DNA of 64,000 nucleotides from a virus. The notes under the pieces were generated by a model. That model saw only the letters and a program-made list of their open reading frames with translations, was not told the DNA's origin and did no database searches. Positions 10,036 to 56,309 of this stretch are shown here, piece after piece. The position numbers and the translations under genes were made by a program. The stretch lies in the IMG/VR virus record IMGVR_UViG_3300045988_140747; one strand, written 5' to 3'. Positions within the stretch are counted from its first letter, which is position 1. Every line of letters starts with the position of its first letter.

Positions 10036-10407
10036 ATGTTTTATTCGTTCTGCTTCTTGAACGGCAAGATCGGCGTTACTCTTGATCGCTACACCACCAT
10101 CTCACCGAAGTTCCGCTCTTGCATTACCGGAATGATCGTTTCCGAAGATGATACTGAGGCGCTTGGCGATATGATCGGTGAAGAGGGCATTCATCTCCTT
10201 GTTGAGAACGGCTTTCTGATCGAAGAAGGCGAATGGAAAAAGACTCCTGACACCAGATCGTGGCAGGAGCTTTGTGAGTATGGCGAGGTTATCAAAGCGG
10301 TAAGGAAATTCAGGGAAGATCACGATTCCACCCTGAGAGAAGCTCGTGATGCCATTGAGAACTACAAGGCGTTTCTGAAGAACAAGTACGGCAGGAAGGG
10401 AAAGTAA
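10036..10407 (+). CDS. hypothetical protein
   Basis: 123 aa. The C-terminal GEVIKAVRKFREDHDSTLREARDAIENY loosely recalls the L7/L12 C-terminal helix motif. Weak. Confidence 0.55.
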   Translation: MFYSFCFLNGKIGVTLDRYTTISPKFRSCITGMIVSEDDTEALGDMIGEEGIHLLVENGFLIEEGEWKKTPDTRSWQELCEYGEVIKAVRKFREDHDSTLREARDAIENYKAFLKNKYGRKGK

Positions 10408-10673
10408 TGATGCATCCCAATTATTTCACGGTTCTTGGTTACAACAAGGACGATGGCAGTTACACTCATTTTACGGACTGCTCAAGTTTTCCAAATGCAG
10501 AAAGGTATGCAAGGTACTTGCTTCGGACGGCTCAGGCAAAGCCGGCTGGCGGAAGCTTTGACCAGTTCGAAGTATGGGATATCAACAAGAACCGGGTTGC
10601 AGTGCTATCCCCCGACGGGGGGAAGCGAATCTGTGAGGGCGTGACAAATGCGGATCGAGAAGATTTTCTGTGA
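10407..10673 (+). CDS. hypothetical protein
   Basis: 88 aa. Start abuts the upstream stop (TAATGATG). Confidence 0.55.
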   Translation: MMHPNYFTVLGYNKDDGSYTHFTDCSSFPNAERYARYLLRTAQAKPAGGSFDQFEVWDINKNRVAVLSPDGGKRICEGVTNADREDFL

Positions 10674-10902
10674 TCGTTGCGGCAAGGAGATTCCAAAGGT
10701 TACAGAGATGAACATTTTGGGCCATGAAGTAGAGAGATATCGGCTTGGGAAGCTAGATTTTGGATTTCCATTCCACGACATCGACCTTAGCCGGTATGGC
10801 ACAGACGTTTGCGAGAAATGCGCTTTTGAAGTAAGCATATTGATGCGCGACCAGAAAGCTAAAATGATTGGAGGCAACGGCTATGGAACACTCAAGGAAT
10901 GA
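10648..10902 (+). CDS. small zinc-ribbon-like protein
   Basis: CDRCG...CEKC pairs. 84 aa. Confidence 0.55.
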   Translation: MRIEKIFCDRCGKEIPKVTEMNILGHEVERYRLGKLDFGFPFHDIDLSRYGTDVCEKCAFEVSILMRDQKAKMIGGNGYGTLKE

Positions 10903-11365
10903 CGCCTACAATGCACTGGATACTCTGGCAAGCAACGTCAGAGAAACAGACAACTACGGCATGTTCTGCAGGGACGAGCTGAAAAGCCTGATTGATGACT
11001 ATTTTTCAATTGTAGATCACCTCAAGCAAACGACACTCTGGGATGTCCTGACATATGAAGATCGGCTTGAAAGTCCGGTGCGAATCCTCACAGCAGACAA
11101 TGAGCGGCTGAAGAATGAAAACAACGAGCTTCTTTGCAAGCTCAAACAGTCTGAAAAGTACATAGCTTACGAAGACATCGATGAACAGCTCCGCATTGGT
11201 GATGTAGTTTACTCGAAGATTTTGAAAACGGCTGGAACGGTTCTCCGAGCCGATCCTGATGACTATATTATCGCAGACTTTGATATGAGAAATGGATCGT
11301 CAAAGAGATATGCGTGCAGATGGAATGATATTGTTCTTATAGAACGGAAGGGGGAGCAAAAATGA
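10883..11365 (+). CDS. hypothetical coiled-coil protein
   Basis: ATG 10883, 8 nt after GGAGG 10870-10874. 160 aa. Confidence 0.6.
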   Translation: MEHSRNDAYNALDTLASNVRETDNYGMFCRDELKSLIDDYFSIVDHLKQTTLWDVLTYEDRLESPVRILTADNERLKNENNELLCKLKQSEKYIAYEDIDEQLRIGDVVYSKILKTAGTVLRADPDDYIIADFDMRNGSSKRYACRWNDIVLIERKGEQK

Positions 11366-24288: not shown

Positions 24289-25691
24289 ATGCCACAGATC
24301 CTGAAGCCGCAGGAAGGACCTCAGACACGGTTCATGTCTACCCCCGCGAGCATTTGTATCTATGGCGGCTAGGAGCAGCCGGCGGAGGGAAAAGCTTTGG
24401 ATTGCTCATGTCTGCCCTTCGGTACAAGAACGTGCCCGGGTTTGGCTGCACCATATTCCGAAAGAACTTCAACCAGATATTTGCACAGGGCGGTCTGTGG
24501 GATGAATCCATGCAGATCTACCAAGACGTCAAGGGAGCTTGTCCCAAGTTCGCTCGAGGGCAATGGTTGTTCTGCAATGACAAAGGTGAGGTTTTATCAA
24601 AGGTCACGTTTGCTCATATTGAGAAGGATGAGGACGTCCATAAATGGCAAGGCTCTCAGATCTGCGAATTGGGATTTGACGAGCTAACTCATTTTACCGA
24701 GAAAACGTTCTTCTATATGCTATCCCGTAACCGATCTGCCTGTGGTGTTGAGCCATTTGTCAGGGCTACATGCAACCCTGATGCGAATTCATGGGTGGCA
24801 AAGTTCATTGAGTGGTGGATCGATCAGGATACTGGATACCCAATCCCTGAACGGAGTGGGAAGATTCGATGGTTTATCCGCCGGGATGAAGTGCTCTACT
24901 GGGCTAATACCCGGCAAGAGCTCTGGAAAAGATTCAATCTCACTACAGAAGAGGAGAAAAGTGAGCCAAGGTCTGTCACGTTCATAATGTCTAAGTTGAG
25001 CGACAACAAGGAACTTATGAAGGTGAACCCGGGCTACCTTGCAAACCTAAAGGCGCTGTCTCAGATCGAGAGAGAGCGCCTTCTTTATGGAAACTGGAAG
25101 ATCAAGGCCGCTGCTGGTCTCTACTTCAAGAGATCACAGCTTGGAGAGATTCTCAATAGTGTCCCTGCGGATGTCATCCAGTGGGTAAGATGCTGGGACT
25201 TGGCTGCTACGGAAAAGGACGACAAGGGAGACCCGGCATATACTGCTGGCGTCCTTATGGGAAAGCGGAAGAATGGACGATATGTCATTGCCAACGTTGT
25301 CAACAAGCAGATGTCCGCATCTGATGTCCGAAAGACCATCAAGCTCACGGCACAGTCTGATAGAGCTGCCTATAAGCGAGTCCGAGTTCGATTGCCACAG
25401 GATCCCGGACAGGCCGGTAAGGAACAGGCGGAGTCCTACATAAAGTTCTTGGCCGGCTTTGATGTTACGACTGTGGCAGAAAGCGGAACCAAAGAGGCAA
25501 GAGCGGAGCCAATGGCTGCACAATGGCAGGCTGGAAACTTCGACATTGTATACGGCGAGTGGAATGAAGAGTACCTGCTTCAGCTTGAAAACTTCCCAGA
25601 TGGAAAGTTCAAGGATATGGTCGATGCTTCCGCAAATGCTTTTGCAGAGATCGAATCCAGATGCGCATTCAACCTCAGCAACCTGATTTGA
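24289..25691 (+). CDS. terL: terminase large subunit, reading frame interrupted near codon 27
   Basis: ATG 24289 (RBS GGAAGGGG) encodes MPQILKPQEGPQTRFMSTPASICIYGG, then TAG 24370. The -1 frame continues LGAAGGGKSFGLL (Walker A), FDELTHF and ATCNPD. The long frame has no ATG or RBS of its own. Confidence 0.75.
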
Positions 25692-25717
25692 TTACCATAC
25701 CGGAAGGAGATATAAGC

Positions 25718-27110
25718 GTGGATAAGATGACACAAGAGGATCGCATCAAGCACTATGCGCATCTGATTCAGCGTCAGACTGGCAAGGCTGTGCGACCGTA
25801 CCGTGCTGACGGATACGTCAACATGGTTAACCGGTATGGCACATCGAAAGATTCGTCCGAGCAGTACAACTTCGTACCGGATGCGCCGGTTGCTGACGAT
25901 GTGCTTGAAATGCACTATGAAAACAACGGCCTGTTTTCCAAAATCATCGATATGCCGGCAGAGGAAGCCATCAAGCACGGCTTTACCATCGAAGACGTAG
26001 AGGACGGAAAGCTGGCTGACTTCTACAGCGAAGCTCTCGACGAACTCAACTGGGAAGAGAACGCCATGACCGCCGTTAAGTGGGCAAGACTGTTCGGCGG
26101 CTCCATTGCCATTATGCTTGTGAACGATGGTCGTGGGCTCGAGGAACCTCTCGATTGGAAGAACATTCAATCCATTGACGATATCCGAGTGTACGACAGA
26201 TCGCTCATTAGCCCTGACTACAGTAGCGTGTTCAACTACGATCCGCAGGATCCATTCCGAGTTCGCGGCAGTCGGCTTGGTATGCCCGAATACTATGATG
26301 TCTATAGCAAGTATGGATCATTCCGAGTACACGACAGCAGATGCCTTGTTTTCCAAAACGGCGTCCTGCCTGAAAATGCAACTAACTCCATCTACCAGTT
26401 TTGGGGAATCCCGGAGTACATCAGGCTGAACAAGGCCATCCGGGATGCGGACATTGCACACCGCAGCGCACCCAAGTTGCTGGAACGGTCTGTGCAGCCC
26501 ATCTATAAGATGAAGGATCTCGCGGCTGAGTTGGCTACAGAACAGGGCGAAGACCGCATTCTCAAACGTCTGCAGGTTATCGACACTGCACGAGGAATCC
26601 TCAACAGCCTTGTCATCGATGCCGATGGCGAAGACTATGACTTCAAGACGTTCCAGTACAACGGTATCACTGACGTTATCAGTGCATCCTGCAATATGCT
26701 CGCTGCCCTGTCCAATATTCCACAGATCATTCTGTTTGGGCAGACCATCAGCGGAATGAGCAGCACTGATGACACCAGCATGGAGAACTACTACAACTAC
26801 GTTGAGCGCATTCAGAAAAGGATGCTGCGGAGTAATCTCCGATATCTACTGTCTGTTGTTTTTCAAGCCGGCCTTGCAACCGGAGAGGTTGATGAAGTCC
26901 CAAAGCTGAAGGTTCAGTTCAATCCTCTGTGGTCTGTCAGCGATTCCGACCAAGCAACTCTGGATCAGCAGAAGGCCCAGACCGAGCAGATCAAGGCGCA
27001 GACTGCCCAGATCTATGTCGGTATGGAAGCCATTGATCCCAGCGAGGTTCGTTCCAAGCTTGCAGATAGCGATGACTTTGATGTCGAGAATATGCTTGAT
27101 GAGTATACTG
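25718..27110 (+). other. portal domain (DUF1073-like)
   Basis: RADGYVNMVNRYGTSKDSSEQYNF...LEMHYENNGLFSKIIDMPAEEAIKHGF and the following ~400 aa fit the DUF1073 portal pattern. Position is directly after TerL. Confidence 0.75.
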
Positions 27111-30100
27111 AAGAGGAACTCGAAGCTGGAATGCCAAGCAATGATGAGAGCCAAGAGCAAACGCCTGATGATGGACAGCCTGCTACTCCTGATTCTCAAC
27201 CTACTGGAAATGATGAAAAAGCCGGACCTGGTCAGCTCCTGAACGAAAAGACTCTCTCTGCTGTTGGAAACAATGCAAAAGATCCTGCCACCATGGAGAC
27301 TAAGGTTAGCTCCGATCCTCATGAAAACAAGGAAGGCACTGAAGGTGATGCCCCTGCATCCGCCCCTGCTGCGACGAAAAAGCCTTCCGACATGGACCCT
27401 GAAGAAAAGGCCAAAGCTGCACAATCGCGCCAAAACAAGGCAAAAGACCGGGAGGACTCACTTCGTACCGATGACAACAATTCTCACTCCGAAGATCAAA
27501 AAGGCTCGGTGGGCGTTATTGTGGTCAATGGGGGCAGAGTCCTGAATGGTACTCGGCACAACGATTTTGGCTACGGCCTTGTCTGTGGCCCCGGCGGTCA
27601 CATTGAAGAAGGTGAAACTCCGGAACAGGCTGCATTCCGAGAGACCAAAGAAGAATTCGGTATTACGCCCAAAAGCCTTATGTGCCTTGGACAAGGGCCT
27701 AAAGAAAAAGATACCGGCCTGAAGCCGTACCTGTTCCTGTGCACCGAATACTACGGCACTCCGAACTGCGAAGATCTCGAGATGACCGGCGCCAAGTTCA
27801 GTACCATTGAGGAATTGAACGAAAAGGCCGAATCCTTGTTCGGCCCGTTCGCAGACGGCCTGAACATCCTGATGGACTGCCTTGAAACCGGCATCTTCTA
27901 TACAGACCCAGCGGAAGGCGTAACTGGCGAGAAACTGAATTCTCATCTGGAAAAGGCTATGAATGCCGATGGAGGTCAAGGATCTGGCAATTTTGGACAC
28001 GAAGGAAGGCCAGGAAAAGTAGGAGGAAGCGCCGAGTCGCACAACTTTGGAGGGCTCAAAAACAGCGAGCTTTCATCTAAGATGAATGGCGTGTTCGATG
28101 ATGCAAAGATAGGAACTCGCTTTTCCGTAAAGATGAACGGCGTTGCCGGAAAAGATGATTATGAAATCTATAAAGTTTCAGATGGATTCTACGTTCGGAG
28201 CAAAAAAGGCGGAAACGATATTGTCAAATCAGTTGACAAGCTCGTCGAGAATTGCGGTGTATACGTCACAAATCTGACCTCTGACAAGGTCATGTATAAG
28301 GAAGCCAACATTGAAGTTGGTGAACCCGAAACAGAAGAAGCACAAAGTTTTACTAGAGCATACGAATCTTGCAGAAAGGAAAGAGAGCGACTTGCATCTG
28401 GGAATTATAAAATCACTGAAGTTGATGATGCTACCGCAAAAAAGTATGCTGACACTTTGAACAAAGCAAGCAAGGCAAAAATCGCAAAACTTGCTATTGA
28501 TGACCCACAGTTCAAGGCTGTTGTTGATAACATTTCTGCGTATACACAGGGAGAATATGTATATCAGCGAAAAGCGACTGAAAAATTCATCAGCAACGGA
28601 TATGACCCATCTAACGATGCAATCCTCGGAGATCGACTTACCGATTCTTTGTATTTATGCAAAGACATGTACAAGGGACAAAATCTTTCCGTTTCCAGTG
28701 CAAGTGTAACGGAAGGCATGGCGAACTTGACAAAGGCTGTGAATTGCTCCGATCCGTTTGACGGAGAGCTGTACCGAGTTGCTCAGGACAGAAGCCTGAT
28801 GAAAACTGCAGACTCTGGAAACCAGGGAGTATACACTCCGCCAAAACCCGGAGAAACAATATCCATAGTTGCTCCTACTTCGTTCTCAAAGGACAAAGCG
28901 GCTATTGATAAGATTGCCAAAGATAAGTCCGGTGATATCATCTATTACACTGTTCAACCGGGTGCTCATGCCGTAGATGTATCAAAGCTGTCACCGTATA
29001 AGCAAGCTGAACTCCTTACCTGCGGAGAATATGAGGTTGTCAGTGTTGATTCCAAGCCTCAGAGAGTTGTTATGACTCAGATCGATCGTTTCACAAGTGA
29101 AACAATCGATTCGCTGAAGGCCAACAGAGGGGCAACAGTTGACGACGGTTTTGTTAAATTTCCAATCCTTGAAACTCATGTGACTCTTCGCCAGAAAGAA
29201 CCTATTCACATGGATTCTTGCGATGATAGCATCCACAGATACAGACCCGACGATTTTTCCGAACGGATGGTCTATGATGACGAGATTGATCTCGATGGTG
29301 GCCCAGGGTCTGGGAACTATGGGCACGAGGGCGTTCCGGGGCAAGTGGGCGGAAGCGCCCCTAGCACAAGCGGTCCGATTTCCAAAAGTAGCTTTCAGAA
29401 GGGCTCTGGTCACTTTGAAGTAACTGGTGACGTGAAAGATATGTATCTCACAAAGCCGGCAAGAACCAGAATTGAAGGGGCTATTAAAACGGTGAAAACC
29501 GCTAATGACCTCAAGAAATATCTTGAAAATCAAGGAATCAAGCTTGAAACGTCTTATGAACCACTCAAGAAAGCGATGGATAGAGAGATCCCGTCCATCA
29601 AGGAGCAGGCTGATTATGTGATTGCCGCTATTGAGCAGTACAAGGATCTCGGTGGGCTTAAAGCGCTTAAAGCGGTTCACATCTATGACCATGATATTGA
29701 TGCACAGGCGCAGTACAGCTATCGCGCAAAAGGGGAAGGTGATGTTCCAGACGAGGGACATTTGTATATCAGCTACATGGCTAATGGAGAGCAAATTATG
29801 CATGAGTTTGCTCACGCCTATGCTGACTCCACAAAGCCTGATGGAATGGATGTTGTCGAATGGTCAGCGAAGCTCAACCAAGAAGCAGGCCTTTCGAAAA
29901 ACGTAAAATCATACTTCGGCGCGGACAGCGATGCTAAAGAAGCTGAGCGTTTTGCCAATGCGATTGGGTACGCAATTGCGGATGGAGATGGACCGGATGG
30001 CCGACTTGCATTTGCTGCAAATGTTGCGAATATCGTAAGAAATTCCAATGGATCGTCCGCAGGAATGTCCGGCGGAAACCTTGCATTTAGAAGCATGATT

Positions 30101-31897
30101 CCGAAAGACAGCTACTTCAACTCTCCATCCTACAAGAAGGCTGTTGAAGCCTACCGCGGAGCCATCAGAAAGCATGACGATGCATGGAAGAAATATAGCG
30201 ACCTCAAGGAAGATCTCAAAGCAGAGTCCGCTCCGAAGCCTGAATCTGAATGGGATGATAACGACATCTTCGAAGATCTCATTGGCCATCGTCCCATGAC
30301 CTACACAGAAAAAGGCAAGAAGATCAAGTCTGAGATGGACAAAGCCTTCAAGGATTCACAGGAATATGACCATGAGCAGACCGAGACTGGCGACAAGCTT
30401 CGCGAGATCAAGAAAAAAGAGCATGACAAGCAGGTGAAGGGCATCCATTTCCAACCGCCTGCTGATGCCTCCTCCGATGATTATGAGGGCTTTACCACTA
30501 AGACCACCGGAACGTCCGCCTATGATGACTACATCAACGGAGAAAGGAACGGAGGCCGAATTGCAGAGATGTCCCCGGCGGAATATCTTCAAAGATGCGC
30601 CTATCAGGTCTTTGAAGATGCTACCATTGAGTCCACTCTGGCTGCTATCGATGAGTCCAACGTTAAGAAGTATGCCGATATGATGAAGAATGGCACAAAG
30701 TTTGACATGCCGTATCTCAATTTCATGTCTGGTCAGCAGGAAGGACGGCATCGAGCCGCTGCTGCCATGCAAGCTGGTATCGATAAGATCCCTGTGCTTG
30801 TGGTCGGAGAAAGGTTTGCCAAGTATGACGGAGGAAAAGGCTCTGGCAACTGGGGCCATGAAGGCCGAAAAGGGAAGCTCGGTGGATCGGCCCCCGGCGG
30901 AGGCGTGCACAACCGGATTTCCGAAGAGGGCGGATCCTACACCTCATTCTCAAAGAAGCAGAAGAAACTTGCCACAACGCACTTTGCCGGCAAGGGGGAA
31001 TTTCACAATCTCCCGGACAAGACTAAGATTGTTGCCGATCTTGTGTTTGGACCGTACTCTATGGTCTATAACGCCAAGCATGGCATGTTCATCGGCGAAG
31101 ACGGTGCCGAAATGAACCCGGATGATGTGACAGACGCTTGCGACAAAGACACTCCTGTTCGAGTGTTCATTCCGAATGAGGCGAGCACGAACTACAACAA
31201 GCTCAAGCAGTCCTTTGATGTTTCCCCGTCCAGAATGGCTGAAGCAAAAGCCTATTCACAGCCAAAGCAAGCCGACAAAGACCTCCGAAAGAAAACCGGA
31301 GAGGTGTGGAAAACGCTTACTGATGGTCAGAAAAAGTCACTTTATGATTATACCGGCGGCTTTTTTATGGACATCAACCACTCCCTGAGAAGTGGTCATG
31401 GAACTGTGCAGAACCAGTCCAAGGCCTCTGACATCACGACCGCCATAGCTAAGAGCAAAACTCAAGAGGATATGTGGCTGTATCGAGGAGTTGGCTTGGA
31501 GGCTGTTCCTAAGATGTTTGGTATTGACTGGGGAAAAATACAGAAGAATGACATTGGTTCTATTGTTGGAATGTCCGGCTCTGACGACGGCTTTATGTCG
31601 TGCGGTACAACTGCTGGCACTGGATATGGAGACGTAACCGATGTCAACATGAAGATTTTCGTTCCGAAGGGGTCTGAGGCTCTATACGCAGAGCCGTTCT
31701 CAAAGTATGGAAGCAACCCGGATGCCAAGAACTGGAACGGCGAAAGCGATCAGACCTATTTTTCCTCCGAAATGGAGACTATCTTGCAAAGAGGGTCTCA
31801 TTTCCAATGCACAAAAGCCTACTACGATGAGGACAAAAAGAAATACAGTATCGAAGTGGCTGTCACCGGACAAGAATACAAGGAGCTCAATTGGTGA
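25718..31897 (+). CDS. portal protein fused to a ~1,500-aa multi-domain (polyvalent) effector extension
   Basis: GTG 25718, 8 nt after GGAAGGAG (or ATG 25727). One uninterrupted frame of about 2,060 codons. N-terminal DUF1073-type portal, then NUDIX, ART-like, HExxH, ParB-like and ART domains separated by a repeated Gly-rich motif. Confidence 0.85.
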   Translation: MDKMTQEDRIKHYAHLIQRQTGKAVRPYRADGYVNMVNRYGTSKDSSEQYNFVPDAPVADDVLEMHYENNGLFSKIIDMPAEEAIKHGFTIEDVEDGKLADFYSEALDELNWEENAMTAVKWARLFGGSIAIMLVNDGRGLEEPLDWKNIQSIDDIRVYDRSLISPDYSSVFNYDPQDPFRVRGSRLGMPEYYDVYSKYGSFRVHDSRCLVFQNGVLPENATNSIYQFWGIPEYIRLNKAIRDADIAHRSAPKLLERSVQPIYKMKDLAAELATEQGEDRILKRLQVIDTARGILNSLVIDADGEDYDFKTFQYNGITDVISASCNMLAALSNIPQIILFGQTISGMSSTDDTSMENYYNYVERIQKRMLRSNLRYLLSVVFQAGLATGEVDEVPKLKVQFNPLWSVSDSDQATLDQQKAQTEQIKAQTAQIYVGMEAIDPSEVRSKLADSDDFDVENMLDEYTEEELEAGMPSNDESQEQTPDDGQPATPDSQPTGNDEKAGPGQLLNEKTLSAVGNNAKDPATMETKVSSDPHENKEGTEGDAPASAPAATKKPSDMDPEEKAKAAQSRQNKAKDREDSLRTDDNNSHSEDQKGSVGVIVVNGGRVLNGTRHNDFGYGLVCGPGGHIEEGETPEQAAFRETKEEFGITPKSLMCLGQGPKEKDTGLKPYLFLCTEYYGTPNCEDLEMTGAKFSTIEELNEKAESLFGPFADGLNILMDCLETGIFYTDPAEGVTGEKLNSHLEKAMNADGGQGSGNFGHEGRPGKVGGSAESHNFGGLKNSELSSKMNGVFDDAKIGTRFSVKMNGVAGKDDYEIYKVSDGFYVRSKKGGNDIVKSVDKLVENCGVYVTNLTSDKVMYKEANIEVGEPETEEAQSFTRAYESCRKERERLASGNYKITEVDDATAKKYADTLNKASKAKIAKLAIDDPQFKAVVDNISAYTQGEYVYQRKATEKFISNGYDPSNDAILGDRLTDSLYLCKDMYKGQNLSVSSASVTEGMANLTKAVNCSDPFDGELYRVAQDRSLMKTADSGNQGVYTPPKPGETISIVAPTSFSKDKAAIDKIAKDKSGDIIYYTVQPGAHAVDVSKLSPYKQAELLTCGEYEVVSVDSKPQRVVMTQIDRFTSETIDSLKANRGATVDDGFVKFPILETHVTLRQKEPIHMDSCDDSIHRYRPDDFSERMVYDDEIDLDGGPGSGNYGHEGVPGQVGGSAPSTSGPISKSSFQKGSGHFEVTGDVKDMYLTKPARTRIEGAIKTVKTANDLKKYLENQGIKLETSYEPLKKAMDREIPSIKEQADYVIAAIEQYKDLGGLKALKAVHIYDHDIDAQAQYSYRAKGEGDVPDEGHLYISYMANGEQIMHEFAHAYADSTKPDGMDVVEWSAKLNQEAGLSKNVKSYFGADSDAKEAERFANAIGYAIADGDGPDGRLAFAANVANIVRNSNGSSAGMSGGNLAFRSMIPKDSYFNSPSYKKAVEAYRGAIRKHDDAWKKYSDLKEDLKAESAPKPESEWDDNDIFEDLIGHRPMTYTEKGKKIKSEMDKAFKDSQEYDHEQTETGDKLREIKKKEHDKQVKGIHFQPPADASSDDYEGFTTKTTGTSAYDDYINGERNGGRIAEMSPAEYLQRCAYQVFEDATIESTLAAIDESNVKKYADMMKNGTKFDMPYLNFMSGQQEGRHRAAAAMQAGIDKIPVLVVGERFAKYDGGKGSGNWGHEGRKGKLGGSAPGGGVHNRISEEGGSYTSFSKKQKKLATTHFAGKGEFHNLPDKTKIVADLVFGPYSMVYNAKHGMFIGEDGAEMNPDDVTDACDKDTPVRVFIPNEASTNYNKLKQSFDVSPSRMAEAKAYSQPKQADKDLRKKTGEVWKTLTDGQKKSLYDYTGGFFMDINHSLRSGHGTVQNQSKASDITTAIAKSKTQEDMWLYRGVGLEAVPKMFGIDWGKIQKNDIGSIVGMSGSDDGFMSCGTTAGTGYGDVTDVNMKIFVPKGSEALYAEPFSKYGSNPDAKNWNGESDQTYFSSEMETILQRGSHFQCTKAYYDEDKKKYSIEVAVTGQEYKELNW
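27503..27900 (+). other. NUDIX hydrolase domain
   Basis: Nudix box GPGGHIEEGETPEQAAFRETKEEFGI (GX5EX7REUXEEXGU). Confidence 0.8.
27968..28033 (+). repeat. protein-level linker motif copy 1: DGGQGSGNFGHEGRPGKVGGSA
   Basis: Read directly from the translation. Codons differ from the other copies. Confidence 0.9.
28520..29120 (+). other. possible ADP-ribosyltransferase-like domain (R-S-QxE)
   Basis: YTQGEYVYQRK..., ELYRV (Arg, nt 28775), PTSFS (nt 28877), KQAELL (QxE, nt 29003), spaced about 35 and 42 aa apart as in C3-like ARTs. Motif-level only. Confidence 0.35.
29294..29359 (+). repeat. linker motif copy 2: DGGPGSGNYGHEGVPGQVGGSA
   Basis: Read directly from the translation. Confidence 0.9.
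29400..30060 (+). other. HExxH (zincin-like) domain
   Basis: IMHEFAHAY at nt 29798-29821 within a helical region. No third ligand assigned. Confidence 0.4.
30550..30812 (+). other. ParB/Srx-like domain
   Basis: MSPAEYL...YADMMKNGTKFDMPYLNFMSGQQEGRHRAAAAMQAGIDKIPVLVV (GRHR plus IPV pattern). Confidence 0.6.
30827..30892 (+). repeat. linker motif copy 3: DGGKGSGNWGHEGRKGKLGGSA
   Basis: Read directly from the translation. Confidence 0.9.
31300..31894 (+). other. C-terminal ADP-ribosyltransferase domain (R-S-ExE type)
   Basis: LYDYTGGFFMDINHSLR, WLYRG (Arg, nt 31484), GFMSCGT (STS-like), SEMETILQRG (ExE, nt 31769-31777). Confidence 0.75.
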
Positions 31898-50423: not shown

Positions 50424-51458
50424 GTGGCCGAAACACGATCCGGATTAGTTGTGGATGACTATTCAAAAGTTGCCTTTTCTGTAGATGGCACCAAACAGGA
50501 GCTATCTATTGACGAATGGAAGGCCGGCTGGGCTACCATTGTTGGCGGCATTAACGGAAAGCCGACAAGCCAGCAGTTCAACATGGTTACATACATTCTG
50601 TCAAGCTTGCTGAATCAAGCCATTTCAGATCTTTCAACTGTTAAAAGCACCGCCAATGACGCACTGCCAAAGACCGAATTCACAGCGGATCAAATTGCAA
50701 AGATGCTTGCAGAACTGGATCTGATGAATGGATGCAACGCCGATAAGCTTGACGGAAAACATGGCGATGAATATGCGTCTGCAGACCATAAGCATTCTGC
50801 AGACGACATTGAAGTCGGAACATTGCCCATCGAACGAGGTGGAACATATGCCACTACCGCTCCTGAGGCGTGTGCAAATCTTGGCGCAATGCAGACAGCC
50901 GGCGGTACGTTCATTGGTGATGTTTACTTTGCAAACGGAACTGCGCATTATGTTTTGTCAACAGGCGACGCGCATCTTAAATCTTTGACGGTATCTGGTG
51001 ATATCAATGCAAAGCGAGTCTACGATGCAGTTTATAACGACTATGCTGAGTTGATGCCGCGTGGCGAACAAACAGAACCGGGCGACATCGTTGCTCTCGA
51101 TACCAGCAGTCAGACGGAACGATACATCAAGGCAACGAATTTGTCTGACCGTATCGCTGGAGTCCACACTGATGAGTTTGCAATGCTTATCGGCGGCAAT
51201 AAAGTTAGAGAAGGGCAGGATTTCCTTGCGGAAAACCTGCCCTCTTTTATTCCTGTTTCTCTTGCTGGCCGTGTGCATACCAAAGTGATCGGGCCTGTTC
51301 ATACGGGTGACTACATTGTTTTGTCTGAAACGCCAGGAATCGGACGTGCCGTTGGTTCGTGTGAATCCTGCCCGACCGATAAAATTGTTGGCTACGCTTG
51401 TGAAGGCGATGACCGAACAGATCTTAGACTGGTAAAAGTCAGAGTAGGGGGCAAGTGA
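50424..51458 (+). CDS. tail fibre protein 1
   Basis: GTG after AAAGGAGG. W..GW..IVGGINGKPTSQQFN, DKLDGKHGDEYA..HKHSADDIEVGTLPIERGG: classic fibre motifs. Confidence 0.7.
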   Translation: MAETRSGLVVDDYSKVAFSVDGTKQELSIDEWKAGWATIVGGINGKPTSQQFNMVTYILSSLLNQAISDLSTVKSTANDALPKTEFTADQIAKMLAELDLMNGCNADKLDGKHGDEYASADHKHSADDIEVGTLPIERGGTYATTAPEACANLGAMQTAGGTFIGDVYFANGTAHYVLSTGDAHLKSLTVSGDINAKRVYDAVYNDYAELMPRGEQTEPGDIVALDTSSQTERYIKATNLSDRIAGVHTDEFAMLIGGNKVREGQDFLAENLPSFIPVSLAGRVHTKVIGPVHTGDYIVLSETPGIGRAVGSCESCPTDKIVGYACEGDDRTDLRLVKVRVGGK

Positions 51459-52444
51459 TGATAAAAAAGGATTCACGGTGCTATGCTTCTGACTTTTCTG
51501 AAATAAAGAAAGCACTTGATGCTGAGCTTGGCCGTCGCGGAAAAGCTGAGGGAACAGCGCGTGGGCAGAGCGTTGGCAGCATGGCTTCATACAAACAAGA
51601 GTTCTCAAATGCTATTGCAGTAGGAGAAACTATCAGAAATGAACACATTCAGAAGCTCACTCAGCCTTTGAGCGCCATTACGGGTTCATCCATTGCACCT
51701 GAAAATGGAAACAAGGTTACTGCCGATGTACTGGCTCAAGCTGCATCGATGCTCAGTGAACTCAGTTCGGTCGAGGAGACATCCTCATCAAGCGGATGCG
51801 CAGGAGCGTGCTCCGGCCTTTGCGCAACTGGTTGCTATTCCTCGTGTTCTGGATGTACCGGTAGCTGCACGGGTGGTTGTTTAGACTCTTGCGTTGCGAC
51901 TTGCGCAGATGATTGCGTTGGTGGCTGCAAGACAACATGCTCTGGATTGTGCACCGGGACATGCACTGGAACGTGCACGCAAGCATGTGCAAATACTTGC
52001 GGAGGAACATGTACCGGCACTTGCATGGGCACCTGCGTAAATTCCTGCACTGGCAACTGCGTTGGAAAATGTACAGGTACATGCACAGCAGCCTGTGCCG
52101 ATAGCTGCACAAGGAACTGTAAGACAACCTGTAGTGGCGGATGCTCCGGTTCATGTGATGGTTGTTCAAGTTCCTGCGAGGGAAGCTGCAGCACCAATTG
52201 TGCTGATAGCTGCGATAACAATTGCACGACTGGGTGCAAATCTTATTGTGCAAATAGCTGTCAGGATAGTTGCGCTGGAACGGGTTGCCTTGCTAACTGC
52301 GAAAGCGGCTGCTCGAACTCTTGCAGAGGCGACTGTAATTCGCACTGCGGTTCACAGTGCACTAGCGGTTGCGATTCAAGCTGCGATGGATGTTCTGGAT
52401 CGTGTTCCGGTGGCTGCACAAGCTGCTCTGGATTCTTATTTTAA
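51455..52444 (+). CDS. CXXX-repeat (54-Cys ladder) protein, candidate radical-SAM substrate
   Basis: GTG/ATG 51455/51458 overlaps the fibre gene stop. 114-aa non-repetitive N-domain, then about 215 aa with Cys at nearly every 4th residue (CTGTCTGTCTQACANTC...). Confidence 0.8.
   Translation: MMIKKDSRCYASDFSEIKKALDAELGRRGKAEGTARGQSVGSMASYKQEFSNAIAVGETIRNEHIQKLTQPLSAITGSSIAPENGNKVTADVLAQAASMLSELSSVEETSSSSGCAGACSGLCATGCYSSCSGCTGSCTGGCLDSCVATCADDCVGGCKTTCSGLCTGTCTGTCTQACANTCGGTCTGTCMGTCVNSCTGNCVGKCTGTCTAACADSCTRNCKTTCSGGCSGSCDGCSSSCEGSCSTNCADSCDNNCTTGCKSYCANSCQDSCAGTGCLANCESGCSNSCRGDCNSHCGSQCTSGCDSSCDGCSGSCSGGCTSCSGFLF
51797..52441 (+). repeat. 12-nt periodic Cys-codon array (54 TGC/TGT codons)
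   Basis: Units counted by hand: 49 CXXX, 4 CXX, 1 CXXXX. Spacer residues are almost only G/S/T/A/D/N. Confidence 0.9.
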
Positions 52445-52462: not shown

Positions 52463-53047
52463 ATGGACGCTACTATTCATTATGCAAGTAACGGCGACTC
52501 AGATGCAGATGCATCGTATCTCAGAAATCTGCCGATCATTAAGCTCCTTCAAAAGGCCACCATCGATGTCGATGACTGGAGTGTGCTCTTGTCTGCCGCT
52601 CCTAACGGCGAAGATAAGCTTTTCTGGTGTCTTGGATATGCTGGCGCTCTTTGTGCTATCGACGCAACAGACTTTGATGACTGGTTTATCTACTGCCTTA
52701 CAGTCGTGGACTCCGCTTTGCAAGCCTGCAAAATCGAGAGTGCTTCTGATGAGCGCCGAAACCTGCTTGCTCTTGGGCTTGCATCGAGAACTTTTAATTT
52801 TGCAGCAAATCCTGTCACCAAAGATCTGAAATGTAAGGACGCATTACTCGGCGCTGGCGATTACCGTTGTTCTGAAGATGCTGATATCTTTGCCATGTGG
52901 TTTGCTCTTCGCATCTTGACTGAATATCTGAGGCTTGACTTCAACAGCAATCTGCGGGCTTTGACAAATGCCATGGTGTCCATGAACAAAATTCGGGAAC
53001 GGTACAGCCAGATTGCAGACAGGCTTCCGAAAATGGATGCCTGCTGA
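52463..53047 (+). CDS. hypothetical protein of the CXXX/rSAM cluster
   Basis: 194 aa, RBS CAGGAGGAAAAG. Seven Cys. No family recognised. Confidence 0.6.
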   Translation: MDATIHYASNGDSDADASYLRNLPIIKLLQKATIDVDDWSVLLSAAPNGEDKLFWCLGYAGALCAIDATDFDDWFIYCLTVVDSALQACKIESASDERRNLLALGLASRTFNFAANPVTKDLKCKDALLGAGDYRCSEDADIFAMWFALRILTEYLRLDFNSNLRALTNAMVSMNKIRERYSQIADRLPKMDAC

Positions 53048-53067: not shown

Positions 53068-53370
53068 ATGAAAATTGTAGAGTTGACTACCATCGAGAGC
53101 GAAACTGTAGAGCGTGCTTTTTATGAGGCACAGTCGTATGAGTCGCTCATGGCGGTTCTCAGCCGACAGCTGAATGCCAATGCGAATCCTGAAACTGCCA
53201 AGATCCTTATGCATTATGCAGAGCTGTGCAGAGCTGCACAAATGAAGCTTAAAATGGCACAGGATACCGTCGTTTCGCGGTATATCGACCTGAACGATCC
53301 GCGATATGTCCGATACCAATTCGATTTCGGCAGGGAGGAGGTCCATCTCCTTGAAAAACAAGAGATTTGA
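53068..53370 (+). CDS. hypothetical small helical protein of the CXXX/rSAM cluster
   Basis: 100 aa, RBS AAAAGGGGAAG. No family recognised. Confidence 0.6.
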   Translation: MKIVELTTIESETVERAFYEAQSYESLMAVLSRQLNANANPETAKILMHYAELCRAAQMKLKMAQDTVVSRYIDLNDPRYVRYQFDFGREEVHLLEKQEI

Positions 53371-54700
53371 GGACTACGGAAATACAGTCCAAAGACTGTA
53401 CTGCCGAGACCTTCCTGAAACCAGCAGTGCATGCCGCAATATCACATTTCAGGTTACGAACGGCTGCAATCTTCGGTGTTCTTATTGCTATGAGCATCAC
53501 AAGGGATCGGAGCATATGAGCGTCGAGACCGGCAGAAAAATTGTTGATTACTTGCTTGACCAGTACGAACGCAACGATTCGGACTTCATCAACTGGAATA
53601 CACGGGCTGTCGTTCTCGACTTTATCGGCGGAGAACCGCTGCTTGAGGCCACTTTGATTGAACAGATCTGTGATTACTGGTTTTCAGAATGCTTCCGTCG
53701 CGACATTCCACTGGCTCCGTTCACAAGGATCTCTTTTGCTACGAATGGTCAACTCTGGTTTAGCTCTGAAGCGCAGCATTTGATTGAAAAGTATCACGAC
53801 CTCATGTCAATCACAGTTAGCATTGACGGTGTTCAGGATCTTCACGATATGTACCGCCTCGATGAACACGGTAACGGGAGCTTTTCAAAAGCATGGGTCG
53901 CATTTCAAGATGGAAAGCGCCGCTTTGGATGGGCCAACAGCAAAATGACTTTTGTTCCCGGGTCATTCCCGTACATTTCCGATAGTCTCAAGATGATGTT
54001 AGATGAAGGATGCTCTGATGTCGCTTGTAACTACGCATATGAACCTGTGTATACGCCTGCAGATGGACGGTCTCTGTATGAGCAGCTGAAGATTGTGTCC
54101 GACTACATTGTAGACAACAAACTGGATGTTGTTGTCACGATTCTCGATAGTCTGCTCGGCGGAAAAGCTAAAGACGACAAGAATTTCTGCGGTGGCACAG
54201 GCGCTATGTTATCGTTTGCGCCGGATGGGAGCGCCTATCCATGTATTCGATATGCTCCTATTAGCATTGGTGTGGAAAAAGCCAAGAAAGTCCGCTTTGG
54301 AAGCGTCTACGATGGACTATATGTCACTGATGAGCAAAAACGTGTAAAAGCGGATCTTGACGCAATTACTCGTACAACACAGTCTCCAAAAGAATGCTTG
54401 GAATGCCCTGTGTCTGCAGGGTGCGGCTGGTGTTCTGGCATGAATTATGAGGTGTTCGGTACAGCCAATAAGCGTACCACCTCTATTTGCTGGGCACACA
54501 AGGCCCGTGTCCTTGCAAGTGCCTATTATTACAATCACCGGTATGTTGAGATCGGCGATTGCCTGCCAATCAAGGTCGAACTGCCTGAAACCGATGCGCT
54601 GAAGATCCTCTCCAAGCAAGAGTATTCTAAGTTTCAGAACTTAGAAAAAAAGGCGCTGCTGAAATTTGCTGATGCAGCAGGAATTAGAAGAAAGGAGTGA
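53351..54700 (+). CDS. radical SAM / SPASM-domain enzyme (peptide/protein maturase-like)
   Basis: TTG 53351, 9 nt after GGAGGAGG (alt. ATG 53306). CNLRCSYC cluster, GGEPLL, ATNG. C-terminal FCGG...YPCIRY...CLECPVSAGCGWC...SICW is a SPASM-type auxiliary-cluster Cys pattern. Confidence 0.85.
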   Translation: MKNKRFEDYGNTVQRLYCRDLPETSSACRNITFQVTNGCNLRCSYCYEHHKGSEHMSVETGRKIVDYLLDQYERNDSDFINWNTRAVVLDFIGGEPLLEATLIEQICDYWFSECFRRDIPLAPFTRISFATNGQLWFSSEAQHLIEKYHDLMSITVSIDGVQDLHDMYRLDEHGNGSFSKAWVAFQDGKRRFGWANSKMTFVPGSFPYISDSLKMMLDEGCSDVACNYAYEPVYTPADGRSLYEQLKIVSDYIVDNKLDVVVTILDSLLGGKAKDDKNFCGGTGAMLSFAPDGSAYPCIRYAPISIGVEKAKKVRFGSVYDGLYVTDEQKRVKADLDAITRTTQSPKECLECPVSAGCGWCSGMNYEVFGTANKRTTSICWAHKARVLASAYYYNHRYVEIGDCLPIKVELPETDALKILSKQEYSKFQNLEKKALLKFADAAGIRRKE

Positions 54701-54704
54701 AAAA

Positions 54705-56309
54705 ATGGCTGTTTTAATTGCAGAAACCAAGCTCGAAACAATTGATACAGCATGGTACCACTTCTACATTGACAAAGTTGCCGATATAGAGTCACTTCCC
54801 ACTAGTTGTTCGATTGGCATTGCCTTTTCTGTAAAAAAATATGCTCGGCCAACCAGCGTTGCCTACTGCATAGAAGACGCGCATGTATATATGCTCGACA
54901 GCCATGACAAGTGGCGTCCCATGTACGGCTTCTCTGATGATGTTCTTGACGCCCTTGATGTCAAAACAAGTGATTTCTTCAAGATCTGCTCCGAGACAAA
55001 GAACTATAGGGATGAAGCAGTTTCAAATGCTAATTCCTCCGCTAAAAGTGCAGCTGCTGCTCTCGCAAGTCAAAATGCCGCCAAGAACAGCGAGACAAAA
55101 TCTGCTGCAAGTGAAGCCGTAGCAAAAAGAAGTGAGCAAAGTGCAGCAGCTGCAGCTGCAGCTGCAAGCAGCAGTAAAACTTCTGCCGCTGCAAGTGAGG
55201 CAACAGTCAAAGCATCTGCAACTGCTGCCGCTGAATCTCAGGCTAAAGCCGCCGAATCAGAGAAAAATGCAAAGGCTAGCGAGACTTTAGCTGGTACAAG
55301 CGCCACAAACGCATCCACGTCCGCAAAAAATGCAGCCTCTTCCGCCACTACAGCAACTGACGCCGCTACGACAGCTTCCGAAAAGGCTACTGCCGCTAGC
55401 TCTAGTGCCACCAATGCAGCTGCAAGCGCAAAAACTGCAGAAAAAAGCGAAGCAAACGCTAAAATTTATGCTGAGAAAGCTCAACTTATCGGCGACAGTT
55501 ACAAAGGCTGGTACCAAACAGAAAAAGAACTGGCCGCAGATCTGACAGAAGCAAAAAACGGTGACTGGGCGATCGTCGGCGAGTCTGACACCATGTGGGT
55601 GTGGGATGGCGACACCGGCGCGTGGGTCAATACCCGCAAAGAGGTGGACCTGTCGGACTACATGACGCAGGACCAGATCATGAAGCTGCTTGAGCAGTAC
55701 ATGCCACTTCGCCCCGCCACCGCAACCACACTGGGCGGAATTAAGGTCGGCAGTGGACTTTCTGTGACCGAAGATGGAATGCTGAGCGCCGATGCTCAGG
55801 AATACACCCTCCCCGCCGCCACCGCAACCACGCTGGGCGGTGTGAAGGTTGGCAGCGGTCTGACGGTCGATGCGGACGGAACACTTTCTGCGGACAGCGC
55901 TTTGGCTGCCTACCCCGTTGGCAGTATTTTTCAAACAGTCAGCACTACCAGTCCCGCCGAACTGTTCGGCGGTACATGGCAGGAGATTGCATTTAACCGC
56001 GTGCTGATGGGTGCTGGCACAGGCTACACAGCGGGAAGCACGGTGGAGGCCGGACTGCCGAACATCACGGGCAGCTTAATAGAAACAAACGCAGAATCCT
56101 CCCCATTCCGTGGTTCAAAAGCGTCTTTGAAATCATCGGGAGCTTTAAAATTCGTAGAAATCAATACTTCTTGGGGTGGCTACAGTGGTATGTCAGGTTC
56201 GACGTATGATGTTTACTTTGATGCTTCCCGCTCGAACTCAATCTACGGTCGCAGCTATACCGTGCAGCCCGCCGCCTACTATGTGCACATCTGGAAGCGC
56301 GTGGCATGA
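54705..56309 (+). CDS. tail fibre protein 2
   Basis: ATG 54705 after GAAAGGAG. Long Ala/Ser/Thr-rich helical repeat region, duplicated TLGG(I/V)KVGSGL motif, C-terminal YPVGSIFQT...GGTWQEI collar-like domain. Confidence 0.75.
   Translation: MAVLIAETKLETIDTAWYHFYIDKVADIESLPTSCSIGIAFSVKKYARPTSVAYCIEDAHVYMLDSHDKWRPMYGFSDDVLDALDVKTSDFFKICSETKNYRDEAVSNANSSAKSAAAALASQNAAKNSETKSAASEAVAKRSEQSAAAAAAAASSSKTSAAASEATVKASATAAAESQAKAAESEKNAKASETLAGTSATNASTSAKNAASSATTATDAATTASEKATAASSSATNAAASAKTAEKSEANAKIYAEKAQLIGDSYKGWYQTEKELAADLTEAKNGDWAIVGESDTMWVWDGDTGAWVNTRKEVDLSDYMTQDQIMKLLEQYMPLRPATATTLGGIKVGSGLSVTEDGMLSADAQEYTLPAATATTLGGVKVGSGLTVDADGTLSADSALAAYPVGSIFQTVSTTSPAELFGGTWQEIAFNRVLMGAGTGYTAGSTVEAGLPNITGSLIETNAESSPFRGSKASLKSSGALKFVEINTSWGGYSGMSGSTYDVYFDASRSNSIYGRSYTVQPAAYYVHIWKRVA
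55716..55895 (+). repeat. two 78-nt copies (period 102 nt) encoding ATATTLGG(I/V)KVGSGL(S/T)V..DG.LSAD
   Basis: Copies at 55716-55793 and 55818-55895, aligned by eye. Confidence 0.8.

Follow-up and report, generated by a model that had tools for sequence, protein, structure and literature searches.

The closest described counterpart of the locus analysed here is the CXXX-repeat radical SAM system held in curated databases (TIGR04114, TIGR04115 and PF27846), in which a long run of cysteines at every fourth residue lies beside a radical-SAM/SPASM enzyme. To our knowledge this family has been defined only computationally, and full-text literature searches returned nothing on a CXXX-repeat target/maturase system or on a phage version of it. 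Other systems share single features with it. PapB acts on freyrasin, a ranthipeptide with Cys-X3-Asp beta-thioethers, in which closely spaced cysteine motifs are repeated and each gives rise to a small macrocycle; the SCIFF peptide and its maturase CteB combine a cysteine-rich core with a SPASM enzyme. QhpD, likewise a SPASM radical SAM enzyme, installs several Cys thioether cross-links in QhpC, a subunit that stays in a larger assembly and yields no exported peptide, and thus provides a precedent for radical SAM cross-linking of an assembly-retained protein. Among viruses, the SPN3US-like jumbo phages encode proteins with cysteine-rich CXXX/CXX tails just upstream of a PapB/TIGR04115-like radical SAM enzyme (Erwinia phage Asesino gp180-gp185); these are annotated just as hypothetical or radical SAM proteins.

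Our analysis concerns a phage version of this pairing in a window of 64,000 nucleotides of viral DNA (IMG/VR record IMGVR_UViG_3300045988_140747), where the array is encoded within a cassette with the order tail fibre with an IMC-like C-terminus, CXXX protein, X (~194 residues), Y (~100 residues) and radical SAM enzyme (Table 1). In contrast to the curated system, the phage version has an enzyme that scores below the family cutoff, a folded N-terminal domain of ~113 residues on the substrate, two genes (X and Y) between substrate and enzyme, and a setting in a tail-fibre module. The fused N-domain and the five-gene cassette are features beyond those described in an earlier sequence-only reading of this DNA. 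We propose, with a probability of roughly 0.6, that the CXXX protein is a dedicated substrate of the radical SAM enzyme and forms a cross-linked, tail-fibre-associated structural or adhesive element.

Table 1. Features of the cassette and of the tail-fibre genes at its two ends, in window positions.
Feature	Positions	Strand	Basis or remarks
Tail-fibre-like protein (344 aa)	50424..51458	+	phrog_11393 (tail fibre family) match
N-terminal domain of CXXX protein (~113 aa)	51455..51796	+	family conservation, AlphaFold2 fold
CXXX array	51797..52441	+	54 Cys in 215 aa; Cys statistics, TIGR04114 and phrog_6085 matches
Accessory protein X (194 aa)	52463..53047	+	all-alpha; one invariant Cys (C89)
Accessory protein Y (100 aa)	53068..53370	+	conserved motifs ER..Y...S and FDF...EV
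Radical SAM/SPASM peptide maturase	53306..54700	+	TIGR04115 best match; CX3CX2C and SPASM motifs
Tail fibre / baseplate gp10-like protein (547 aa)	54666..56309	+	Pfam Gp10_C and several PHROG tail-fibre families

In-frame translation of the array reproduced exactly the hand count of the sequence-only reading, which had given 54 cysteines, four CXX units (CSG, CDG twice and CTS) and one CXXXX unit (CAGTG). Its figure of 49 CXXX units stands if the terminal CSGF(LF) is counted as a unit and becomes 48 by Cys-to-Cys spacing, where spacings of 4 (n = 48), 3 (n = 4) and 5 (n = 1) were found. The residue make-up was also as claimed, Pro, Trp and Ile being absent and Phe restricted to the final GFLF, as was the alternation of cysteine codons, with 37 TGC and 17 TGT interleaved along the array. 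The cysteine periodicity is far above chance and is held at the protein level in the annotated frame: 48 cysteine pairs occur at lag 4, where 10,000 residue shuffles of the window array never gave more than 23, and the autocorrelation that had been suggested as a check continues with 43 pairs at lag 8 and 38 at lag 12. The array is not a DNA tandem repeat, in agreement with the view that no recent one is present; each of its 53 nucleotide units is distinct, spacer-only nucleotide identity is 0.32 at lag 12, while lags 9 and 15 give 0.27-0.28, and TRF reported only 3.8 copies with 63% match at 51934-51978. Long ORFs are present in the other frames and on the opposite strand of the region, and had rightly been put down to its skewed composition. 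Rather than having an ORF of its own, the array takes up the last two-thirds of ORF 51455-52444; its aromatic tail, CSGFLF, stands ahead of a stop codon at 52442-52444. AlphaFold2 gave the array a pLDDT of ~40 and predicted neither a confident fold nor an ordered disulfide or beta-helix fold.

The full CXXX protein has 328 or 329 residues (51458 or 51455 to 52444); its ORF opens at GTG 51455, and an AGGGGG Shine-Dalgarno sequence precedes ATG 51458, which is the likely true start. The profile matches show that it belongs, as a predicted member, to the curated CXXX-repeat radical-SAM target repeat family: it passed the TIGR04114 cutoff (28.8 bits against 20), the array matched phrog_6085 with an E-value of 9.4e-14, and precomputed Pfam annotation places PF27846 (tSAM_targ_Cxxx_rpt) on most of 735 homologues, this last being evidence from the homologues, with the window protein itself scored with TIGR04114. 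TIGR04117 (Syntroph_Cxxx) reached 38.3 bits, below its cutoff of 50, in an alignment that covers only the beginning of the array, where residues 110-158 are matched with model positions 49-97. An exact-sequence look-up of the window protein returned no record. One viral homologue carries the automatic UniProt label 'TNFR-Cys domain', and other bacterial CXXX classes (L087, L145, L090 and L100) resemble short peptides or Tat-signal proteins.

Comparison across the relatives, which come from gut and other metagenomes, argues that the CXXX gene is real, in-frame and under purifying selection, and by these sequence criteria we regard the point as shown. Homologous arrays contain 13-63 cysteines, with a spacing of 4 in 2836 of 3181 intervals; their cysteine columns are conserved, and their indels comprise whole units, as in a clean 7-unit deletion in the window. 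The selection check proposed in the sequence-only reading gave dN/dS values of 0.08-0.21 for the array and 0.12-0.44 for the spacers alone, and only one of ~80 homologues is frameshifted, so that the 'hypervariable, frameshifted junk' it had held out as the opposing outcome does not describe this family. The spacers favour Thr, Ser or Ala at position 1, Gly at position 2 and Ser, Thr, Gly or Asn at position 3; a conserved acceptor residue was sought in the spacers of the homologous arrays and none was found. The aromatic tail at the C-terminus is conserved, and the distal half of the array is charged. The N-domain carries invariant residues (E24, R28, G41 and H64 in 25 sequences) and was modelled by AlphaFold2 with a pLDDT of 80-92 and three long helices; a fold search against the PDB gave no match, and BFVD held uncharacterised viral homologues only. 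A phmmer search with this domain against 1.8 billion representatives gave 45 hits, among which the large multi-stretch hits P0245, P0255 and P0270 were rejected as spurious repeat proteins, judged eukaryotic.

The radical SAM ORF encodes 464 residues from ATG 53306, and its real start is likely TTG 53351, which is preceded by GGGAGGAGG and would give a protein of ~449 residues, similar in length to its relatives. The CX3CX2C motif lies at residue 39-54 (C54-X3-C58-X2-C61), and three relatives retain both this CNLRCSYC motif and the SPASM motif of seven cysteines (C295, C313, C364, C367, C373, C376 and C395) unchanged. The top match is TIGR04115 (rSAM_Cxxx_rpt) at 316.7 bits, under the equivalog cutoff of 350, and four other phage-type enzymes score 286-301 bits, also under the cutoff. 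Because TIGR04115 is the best-matching family though the score lies below its cutoff, we place the phage enzymes, on profile scores, as a sister clade to TIGR04115 and not as curated members. A scan of GTDB genomes with generic patterns found distant radical SAM enzymes only, with 35-38% identity at best. About 38-53 residues stand ahead of CX3CX2C in the window enzyme, against 80-114 in RRE-bearing relatives, and the PapB-like enzyme of Paenibacillus (L106) has an N-terminal RRE-type domain of ~100 residues that the phage enzyme does not; by sequence, the enzyme lacks the usual N-terminal PqqD-like RRE (peptide-recognition) domain.

The differences from the better-matching neighbours of this family are considerable. 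PapB is the runner-up for the window enzyme, with a full-length match of 134 bits against a cutoff of 340. The PapB acceptor pattern, Cys-X3-Asp/Glu, is inapplicable to the array because position i+4 is Cys, and not Asp or Glu, in 48 of 53 units, and there are 54 sites here against 6 in freyrasin. The suggestion in the sequence-only reading that the units resemble concatenated SCIFF-like cores pointed in the right direction, since a radical-SAM/SPASM peptide maturase lies 0.9 kb downstream, and fails as to the SCIFF cores themselves: the SCIFF maturase model (TIGR03974) reaches 74.6 bits, its cutoff being 425, with TIGR04114/TIGR04115 being the best match and PapB the next, and the window substrate has 329 residues, 54 cysteines and a folded N-domain against the ~45 residues and six cysteines of SCIFF. 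QhpD is among the matches of the enzyme, at 72 bits; QhpC, the small gamma subunit of quinohemoprotein amine dehydrogenase, differs in having three or four links, in belonging to a periplasmic enzyme and in being non-periodic and non-viral. The Asesino enzyme is only ~26% identical to that of the window, the Asesino targets are shorter (~70-155 residues, 15-21 cysteines) with a different N-terminus, and that locus has a second radical SAM enzyme and lacks X and Y.

Proteins X and Y would be new to the databases searched. X, found at the same position in most loci, was modelled by AlphaFold2 as eight helices (pLDDT 88.9, pTM 0.86) and matched nothing in Pfam, NCBIfam, PDB sequence profiles or the PDB fold search. 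A borderline hit to the ALR/Erv sulfhydryl oxidases (E 1.1) is taken to be noise, since only one cysteine of X is invariant and it has no invariant CXXC. Of the genes that accompany the CXXX gene and the enzyme, Y is the most constant; tblastn located it in 73 loci, and it also occurs at the P0081 locus, which lacks X. Searches of Pfam, NCBIfam and PDB profiles with Y gave no match. Neither Y nor X resembles a discrete RRE: when they were compared by hhalign with the RRE domains from five related maturases, the probabilities were 0.2% and 0.1%; the RRE profile used was shallow, and these values are still compatible with a very remote kinship.

In the window the enzyme gene lies ~0.9 kb 3' of the CXXX gene on the same strand, with X and Y between them, and in all 77 informative IMG/VR loci (those found through the enzyme and with enough upstream DNA) the CXXX protein is encoded ~0.9 kb upstream on the same strand. 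The reverse search, through the CXXX proteins of P0023, P0093, P0081 and P0110, found the enzyme 0.3-1.3 kb downstream in all. The stop codon of the fibre gene overlaps the CXXX start as TGATG, and the two genes are evidently translationally coupled. The C-terminal domain of this fibre (~145 residues) directly precedes the CXXX gene in 81 loci; PF11962 (Peptidase_G2 IMC domain) gave weak hits below the Pfam cutoff in 11 of 14 fibre members (best E 4.5e-4), the window protein scoring 14.7 bits against a gathering cutoff of 25, and a PDB search with the domain returned nothing but ubiquitin matches, which we regard as spurious. The fibre protein also has a weak match to the HxH...LP..RGG motif of R-pyocin tail fibres.

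Upstream of the CXXX gene the window encodes sheath, tape measure, baseplate wedge, DUF2612 and tail-fibre proteins, and a second tail fibre follows downstream, a homologue of this gp10-like protein being found after the enzyme in 45 loci. Other backbones surround the cassette with tape measure, major tail, baseplate wedge, Baseplate_J/Mu gp48 and tail-fibre genes. On these annotations the cassette is shown to lie at the distal end of the predicted tail module and to recur in unrelated myovirus-like and siphovirus-like backbones; one contig carries two divergent fibre, CXXX and radical SAM cassettes. No promoter or terminator was found inside the cassette, and the genes called or scanned in the window and in related loci included neither a leader peptidase nor an ABC exporter. 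Sequence identities co-vary among all modules (r 0.68-0.95, with similar partial correlations), and these identity correlations do not discriminate between coupling of the N-domain to the fibre and to the enzyme.

We suggest a model in which the 54 cysteines are most likely turned into covalent cross-links by the radical SAM enzyme of the cassette. After translation the enzyme would abstract hydrogen atoms from spacer residues of the array, and each cysteine sulfur would then be joined to a carbon of a neighbouring residue, so that small thioether macrocycles would form a ladder along what had been a flexible Gly/Ser/Thr-rich chain. Thioethers are put forward as the nature of the cross-links on family resemblance. 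The product may be a rod or knob that is rigid, redox-independent and protease-resistant, which the folded three-helix N-domain would anchor to the tail fibre or baseplate, and the CXXX protein would accordingly be expected in virions. In-frame addition and removal of blocks of units may adjust the length of the array (13-63 cysteines). Since the enzyme lacks the usual N-terminal peptide-recognition domain, we propose that Y probably, and X often, assist it; this helper role is a guess, because neither protein resembles RRE domains. The pairing of substrate and enzyme is favoured by the TIGR04114 match (28.8 bits), by TIGR04115 as the top family and by the thioether-forming PapB as the second. 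Counting against the model are the cost of 54 SAM-consuming turnovers per polypeptide for a slow class of enzyme, and the scores of the phage enzymes (286-317 bits), all under the TIGR04115 cutoff of 350, together with the misfit of the PapB acceptor pattern, the want of a conserved acceptor residue in the spacers and the low-confidence AlphaFold2 model of the array. A classical exported RiPP has a short, disordered leader and, in its cluster, a leader peptidase and/or an exporter. The system differs from it, with a confidently folded N-domain of ~113 residues and neither peptidase nor exporter seen among the neighbouring genes called or scanned.

These last observations bear on the reading of the CXXX protein as a phage RiPP-like effector, whose N-domain would be an oversized leader and whose modified cysteine-rich core, freed at lysis, would target other bacteria or the host as a toxin, an antimicrobial or a signal. 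Such an effector would explain the pairing of substrate with maturase and the arrangement of an N-terminal region before a cysteine-rich C-terminal core, both typical of radical SAM RiPPs, and it fits with the short-peptide or Tat-signal character of the other bacterial CXXX classes and with the cultured jumbo phages that carry small cysteine-rich peptides beside two radical SAM enzymes. We nevertheless consider it unlikely, as leader protease, exporter and immunity genes were not seen in the neighbourhoods examined, the N-domain is conserved as well as folded, and the CXXX gene always lies right behind the tail-fibre gene, coupled to its translation, and moves with the fibre C-terminal domain between unrelated tail modules. 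Improbable too is an array based on metal, Fe-S clusters or disulfides, in the manner of a metallothionein or a disulfide-stapled beta-helix, with the enzyme making some other modification or using another substrate, such as the fibre. The strict two-way co-occurrence of CXXX gene and enzyme argues against this, as do the best matches of that enzyme, to a family curated for CXXX repeats and then to thioether formers; AlphaFold2 gave no ordered disulfide or beta-helix fold, and disulfides would be unreliable if the hosts are anaerobes, as we assume for phages with relatives from gut and other metagenomes. Its attractions are a cysteine content of 25% with small polar spacers, which is reminiscent of metallothioneins and the Tenebrio antifreeze beta-helix, spacers that hold no conserved acceptor for a side-chain thioether, and the automatic 'TNFR-Cys domain' label of the viral homologue.

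Genes right after tail-fibre genes often encode assembly chaperones, and the position of the CXXX gene directly 3' of the fibre gene would also suit a cross-linked scaffold, ruler or chaperone that acts on the upstream fibre and is then discarded from the virion. The IMC-like C-terminal domain of that fibre suggests a complex maturation, and the broad range of array lengths (13-63 cysteines) would agree with such a role. An enzyme, two helpers and up to 63 SAM-consuming modifications would be a high price for a discarded factor, and the conserved aromatic tail and charged distal half look like a functional surface; we therefore hold this to be quite improbable. That the array is non-functional, hypervariable or mis-framed sequence, with another frame expressed, could be entertained from the long alternative ORFs on both strands, and has already been refuted for practical purposes by the comparative data: ~79 of 80 relatives keep this frame open, with the conserved cysteine columns, whole-unit indels and low dN/dS (0.08-0.21) described above, the window array is interrupted by 2-14 stops in its other frames, and the matches to curated families fall in the annotated frame.

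A cross-linked, tail-fibre-associated substrate of the radical SAM enzyme is thus the reading we prefer. With the ~385 related viral contigs, the window shows that a large branch of the CXXX family travels with phage tail fibres as a portable accessory cassette, for a CXXX-repeat/radical-SAM pair that has so far been a computational prediction in curated databases. We advance more tentatively, as possible and somewhat short of even odds, the fuller claim that a tail fibre is partly built from a protein with up to 54-63 enzyme-installed thioethers, made by a leader-domain-independent SPASM enzyme with two helpers of new fold. If true, RiPP-type radical-SAM chemistry would be making a covalently laddered, redox-proof and protease-proof virion element, and the CXXX-repeat family would have its first assigned function. 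Such a natural enzyme system, placing dozens of staples per polypeptide, would be of interest to RiPP enzymologists and protein engineers and, if the protein is both cross-linked and in the virion, would offer a new principle for virion engineering. It would also represent a new form of covalent reinforcement of virus particles, alongside HK97-type isopeptide chainmail, by which gut phages might survive proteases, bile and changing redox conditions.

Within the tail-fibre block of the window, a Cys-ladder protein and a SPASM radical-SAM enzyme (rSAM) make up a co-inherited, dedicated pair, and we consider it very probable (about 0.9) that this system is a CXXX target together with its maturase. 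The CXXX protein scores 28.8 bits against the NCBIfam model TIGR04114 ('Cys-rich repeat' radical-SAM target; cutoff 20) and also matches phrog_6085; at 38 bits against a cutoff of 50 it is not a member of TIGR04117. It has 735 homologues at E <=1e-3, mostly of 190-230 aa, and most of these carry Pfam PF27846 (tSAM_targ_Cxxx_rpt) in precomputed annotation. The enzyme, which contains CX3CX2C and a 7-Cys SPASM motif, is best matched by TIGR04115 ('radical SAM peptide maturase, CXXX-repeat target family'; 316.7 bits, cutoff 350), followed in order by PapB (134 bits), CcpM, the SCIFF maturase (74.6 bits, cutoff 425) and QhpD. Four further phage-type enzymes score 286-301 bits against TIGR04115, and we take the phage enzymes to be a consistent sister clade just below its curated threshold. 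A CXXX repeat with an rSAM is an already catalogued kind of system, which explains the periodicity of the protein.

The array of CXXX units, which forms the C-terminal two-thirds of a 329-aa ORF, translates in frame (51797-52441) into 215 residues, 54 of them Cys, with Cys-to-Cys spacings of 4 (48 times), 3 (four times) and 5 (once). The sequence-only reading had described a near-perfect Cys period in a protein of skewed composition, and the description holds: 48 pairs of Cys lie at lag 4, where none of 10,000 residue shuffles gave more than 23, Pro, Trp and Ile are absent, Phe is confined to the terminal GFLF, and 37 TGC codons are interleaved with 17 TGT codons. The long ORFs it had reported in other frames and on the minus strand are likewise present, the alternative frames across the array holding 2-14 stops. 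The period is a property of the protein and not of the DNA, since all 53 nucleotide units are distinct, nucleotide identity at lag 12 is 0.32 with the Cys codons left out (0.27-0.28 at lags 9 and 15), and Tandem Repeats Finder returns just 3.8 poor copies (51934-51978). The array is also polar, with uncharged proximal units, a distal half rich in D, N and K, and an aromatic tail; nearly all variants lack charged residues in the first ~8 units and in the last ~4.

Nor is the array hypervariable, frameshifted junk, the alternative raised in the same reading. Where dS is unsaturated, dN/dS is low (0.08-0.21 for the array, 0.12-0.44 for the spacers alone), Cys columns align throughout the compared arrays, and only one of ~80 relatives is frameshifted (L033, 8001-9245; pieces of 35 and 28 Cys), either through sequencing error or as a pseudogene. 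A single clean in-frame gap of 28 residues, or 7 units, separates the window array from its closest relatives, which have 61-63 Cys. In the proximal half of the arrays of these relatives (L009-L016) a K-then-D unit pair is repeated at intervals of 7 units (28 aa), so the window array is short of exactly one super-repeat. Between L009 and L016, dS is 0.01 in the N-terminal domain and 0.49 in the array; the two parts evidently recombine independently of each other.

The ATG at 51458 overlaps the stop codon of the upstream gene (TGATG) and follows an AGGGGG Shine-Dalgarno sequence, which makes it likely that the CXXX product has 328 aa and is translationally coupled to that gene; no promoter- or terminator-like site of note was found inside the block. 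The homologues have in common an N-terminal domain of ~110 aa with an EHI.KI..P motif, in which E24, R28, G41 and H64 are invariant in 25 sequences, a strongly conserved array start (GC..sCtGLC..GCy..C.gCTGSC) and an aromatic C-terminal tail (GFLF, GFLW or GSFW). AlphaFold2, run with 83 sequences, predicts the N-domain confidently as three long helices (pLDDT 80-92) and leaves the array without a confidently modelled fold (pLDDT ~40). A Foldseek search with the N-domain returned nothing from the PDB and only uncharacterised viral homologues from BFVD.

Features of the window in the structural and tail-fibre region; every gene in the window is on the + strand
Feature	Position	Strand	Remark
Terminase	24354	+	
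Portal fusion	25661-31897	+	2078 aa, single ORF
Major head protein	37981	+	
Tail sheath	41225	+	
Tape measure	43418	+	
Baseplate wedge	48074	+	
DUF2612	49824	+	
Tail-fibre-like protein	50424	+	directly ahead of CXXX gene
CXXX protein	51455-52444	+	
X	52463-53047	+	ORF without assignment
Y	53068-53370	+	ORF without assignment
Radical-SAM protein	53306-54700	+	
Second tail fibre	54666	+	
DUF4376 protein	after tail fibre 54666	+	
ORF of 971 aa	58254-61169	+	GC 57% vs ~48% elsewhere

Two other ORFs of the window deserve mention. The portal fusion is unusually large; it starts as a portal protein (phrog_15528, E 7e-182), and its residues ~580-725 resemble a NUDIX hydrolase and ~1853-2075 a Bxa ADP-ribosyltransferase. 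The locally GC-rich 971-aa ORF has matches, weak throughout, to a collagen-flanked surface repeat and a minor tail protein.

An rSAM alignment run against IMG/VR picked out 385 viral contigs; 80 of them were retrieved, and the loci are a sample from metagenomes. Where the upstream DNA reached far enough (77 loci), there was in every case a CXXX protein of 13-63 Cys ~0.9 kb upstream of the rSAM on the same strand, and over 71 distinct variants the Cys spacing is 4 (2836), 3 (297), 5 (41) or 6 (6). Conversely, the loci found through CXXX homologues P0023, P0093, P0081 and P0110 all have an rSAM 0.3-1.3 kb downstream, with X and Y, Y alone or three small genes in between. By tblastn, the members of the five-gene cassette occur in 81 (C-terminal ~145 aa of the fibre-like protein), 81 (CXXX N-domain), 61 (X), 73 (Y) and 85 (rSAM) loci. 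The flanking backbones differ, with tape measure (L045), major tail/Ig (L060), baseplate wedge (L075), Baseplate_J/Mu gp48 (L175) or a tail fibre directly upstream (L089), so the cassette is a portable unit of tail-fibre modules. In 11 of 14 members its fibre C-terminal domain shows a weak match to the Peptidase_G2 intramolecular-chaperone domain (best E 4.5e-4, below the Pfam cutoff).

Individual loci show further arrangements. One 148-kb IMG/VR contig (L068) carries two divergent, back-to-back cassettes (2408-5796, -; 7479-11335, +), a separate fibre domain, CXXX protein and rSAM being present in both; the two rSAMs are 60% and 51% identical to that of the window. At L003 (7265-9994) the cassette fibre-domain gene abuts the bacterial housekeeping genes infB, rbfA and truB on the opposite strand, which suggests that the boundary of a prophage or tailocin-like element lies right at the cassette. 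The homologue P0001 (390 aa), found on contigs of up to 130 kb, joins the CXXX array directly and in frame to the C-terminal SPASM portion of the rSAM (CADNCTNISIGEEKSKKVRFGSVYDGLY). Either a deletion has apparently taken out X, Y, the radical-SAM core and the distal array, or the assembly of the contig is wrong; on both readings the cassette is decayed.

The CX3CX2C of the window enzyme stands at residue 54 counted from ATG 53306 and at ~residue 39 counted from TTG 53351, which GGGAGGAGG precedes and which is probably the true start. In related maturases with an N-terminal RRE-type (peptide-recognition) domain, among them a Paenibacillus PapB-like enzyme adjoining a CX3D peptide, the motif lies at residue 80-114; because it is so much nearer the N-terminus in the phage enzyme, the latter lacks the usual recognition domain. 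Y, of ~100 aa with the motifs ER..Y...S and FDF...EV, would be a natural candidate for a trans-acting helper, and profile comparison with RREs did not support homology of Y or X. X is confidently predicted as all-alpha (pLDDT 88.9, pTM 0.86) with one invariant Cys. Neither protein matched Pfam, NCBIfam or PDB sequences, and X matched no PDB fold. At L077 (9114-10004) a single 296-aa ORF covers the positions of both, and may be a natural X-Y fusion or an assembly artefact; a true fusion would argue that X and Y work together. Public gene calls at L167-L171 (11048-12223) start the rSAM at an internal ATG, giving 391 aa with CX3CX2C cut off and no Pfam match recorded; the complete motif can be read further upstream in the same frame, where ATG is absent, so the true start is probably a non-ATG codon.

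PapB, CteB/SCIFF and QhpD, the nearest characterised relatives of the enzyme, all form Cys thioethers, and by analogy we lean slightly towards thioether cross-linking here, in which Cys sulfurs would bond to carbon atoms of residues close by. The PapB rule of an acceptor at i+4 fails for the array, where i+4 is Cys. Spacer side chains are conserved only as 'small', with Gly dominant at position 2. Since i+4 is Cys and the spacers hold no conserved side chain, the acceptor may be the backbone C-alpha, as in sactipeptides, or a side chain at i±1-3 used promiscuously. There is about an even chance that the CXXX protein is virion-associated; a structural role there is suggested by where the gene lies and by its translational coupling, by the folded N-domain and the polarity of the array, and by the fact that the neighbouring genes examined included no protease or exporter.

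Our literature search found no description of the phage tail-module setting, the N-domain, the X and Y genes or the RRE-less enzyme clade, and no curated model covers these at threshold. A distant analogue exists in culture: SPN3US-like jumbo phages, among them Erwinia phage Asesino, encode small Cys-rich proteins upstream of two rSAMs. In Asesino (L006, NC_031107; 2097-3140 and 4058-6296), gp185, gp183 and an ORF at 2097-2480 with no matching annotated CDS have a common 'ISLKNIRDRL' N-terminus and Cys-rich CXXX/CXX tails, the downstream radical-SAM genes being gp181 and gp180; ~44 records of Erwinia and Salmonella jumbo phages carry the Asesino-type enzyme. Other CXXX-repeat classes adjoin distant rSAMs in L090 (8823-9952) and L100 (9083-9775), both Acidobacteriaceae MAGs, L087 (14424-14642) and L145 (5261-5602); in part these are short peptides (72-113 aa), in part proteins whose CXXX runs come after an N-terminus resembling a Tat signal (RRQFLR...AALLL). 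The presence of these classes argues that the phage type is just one branch of the CXXX-repeat family.
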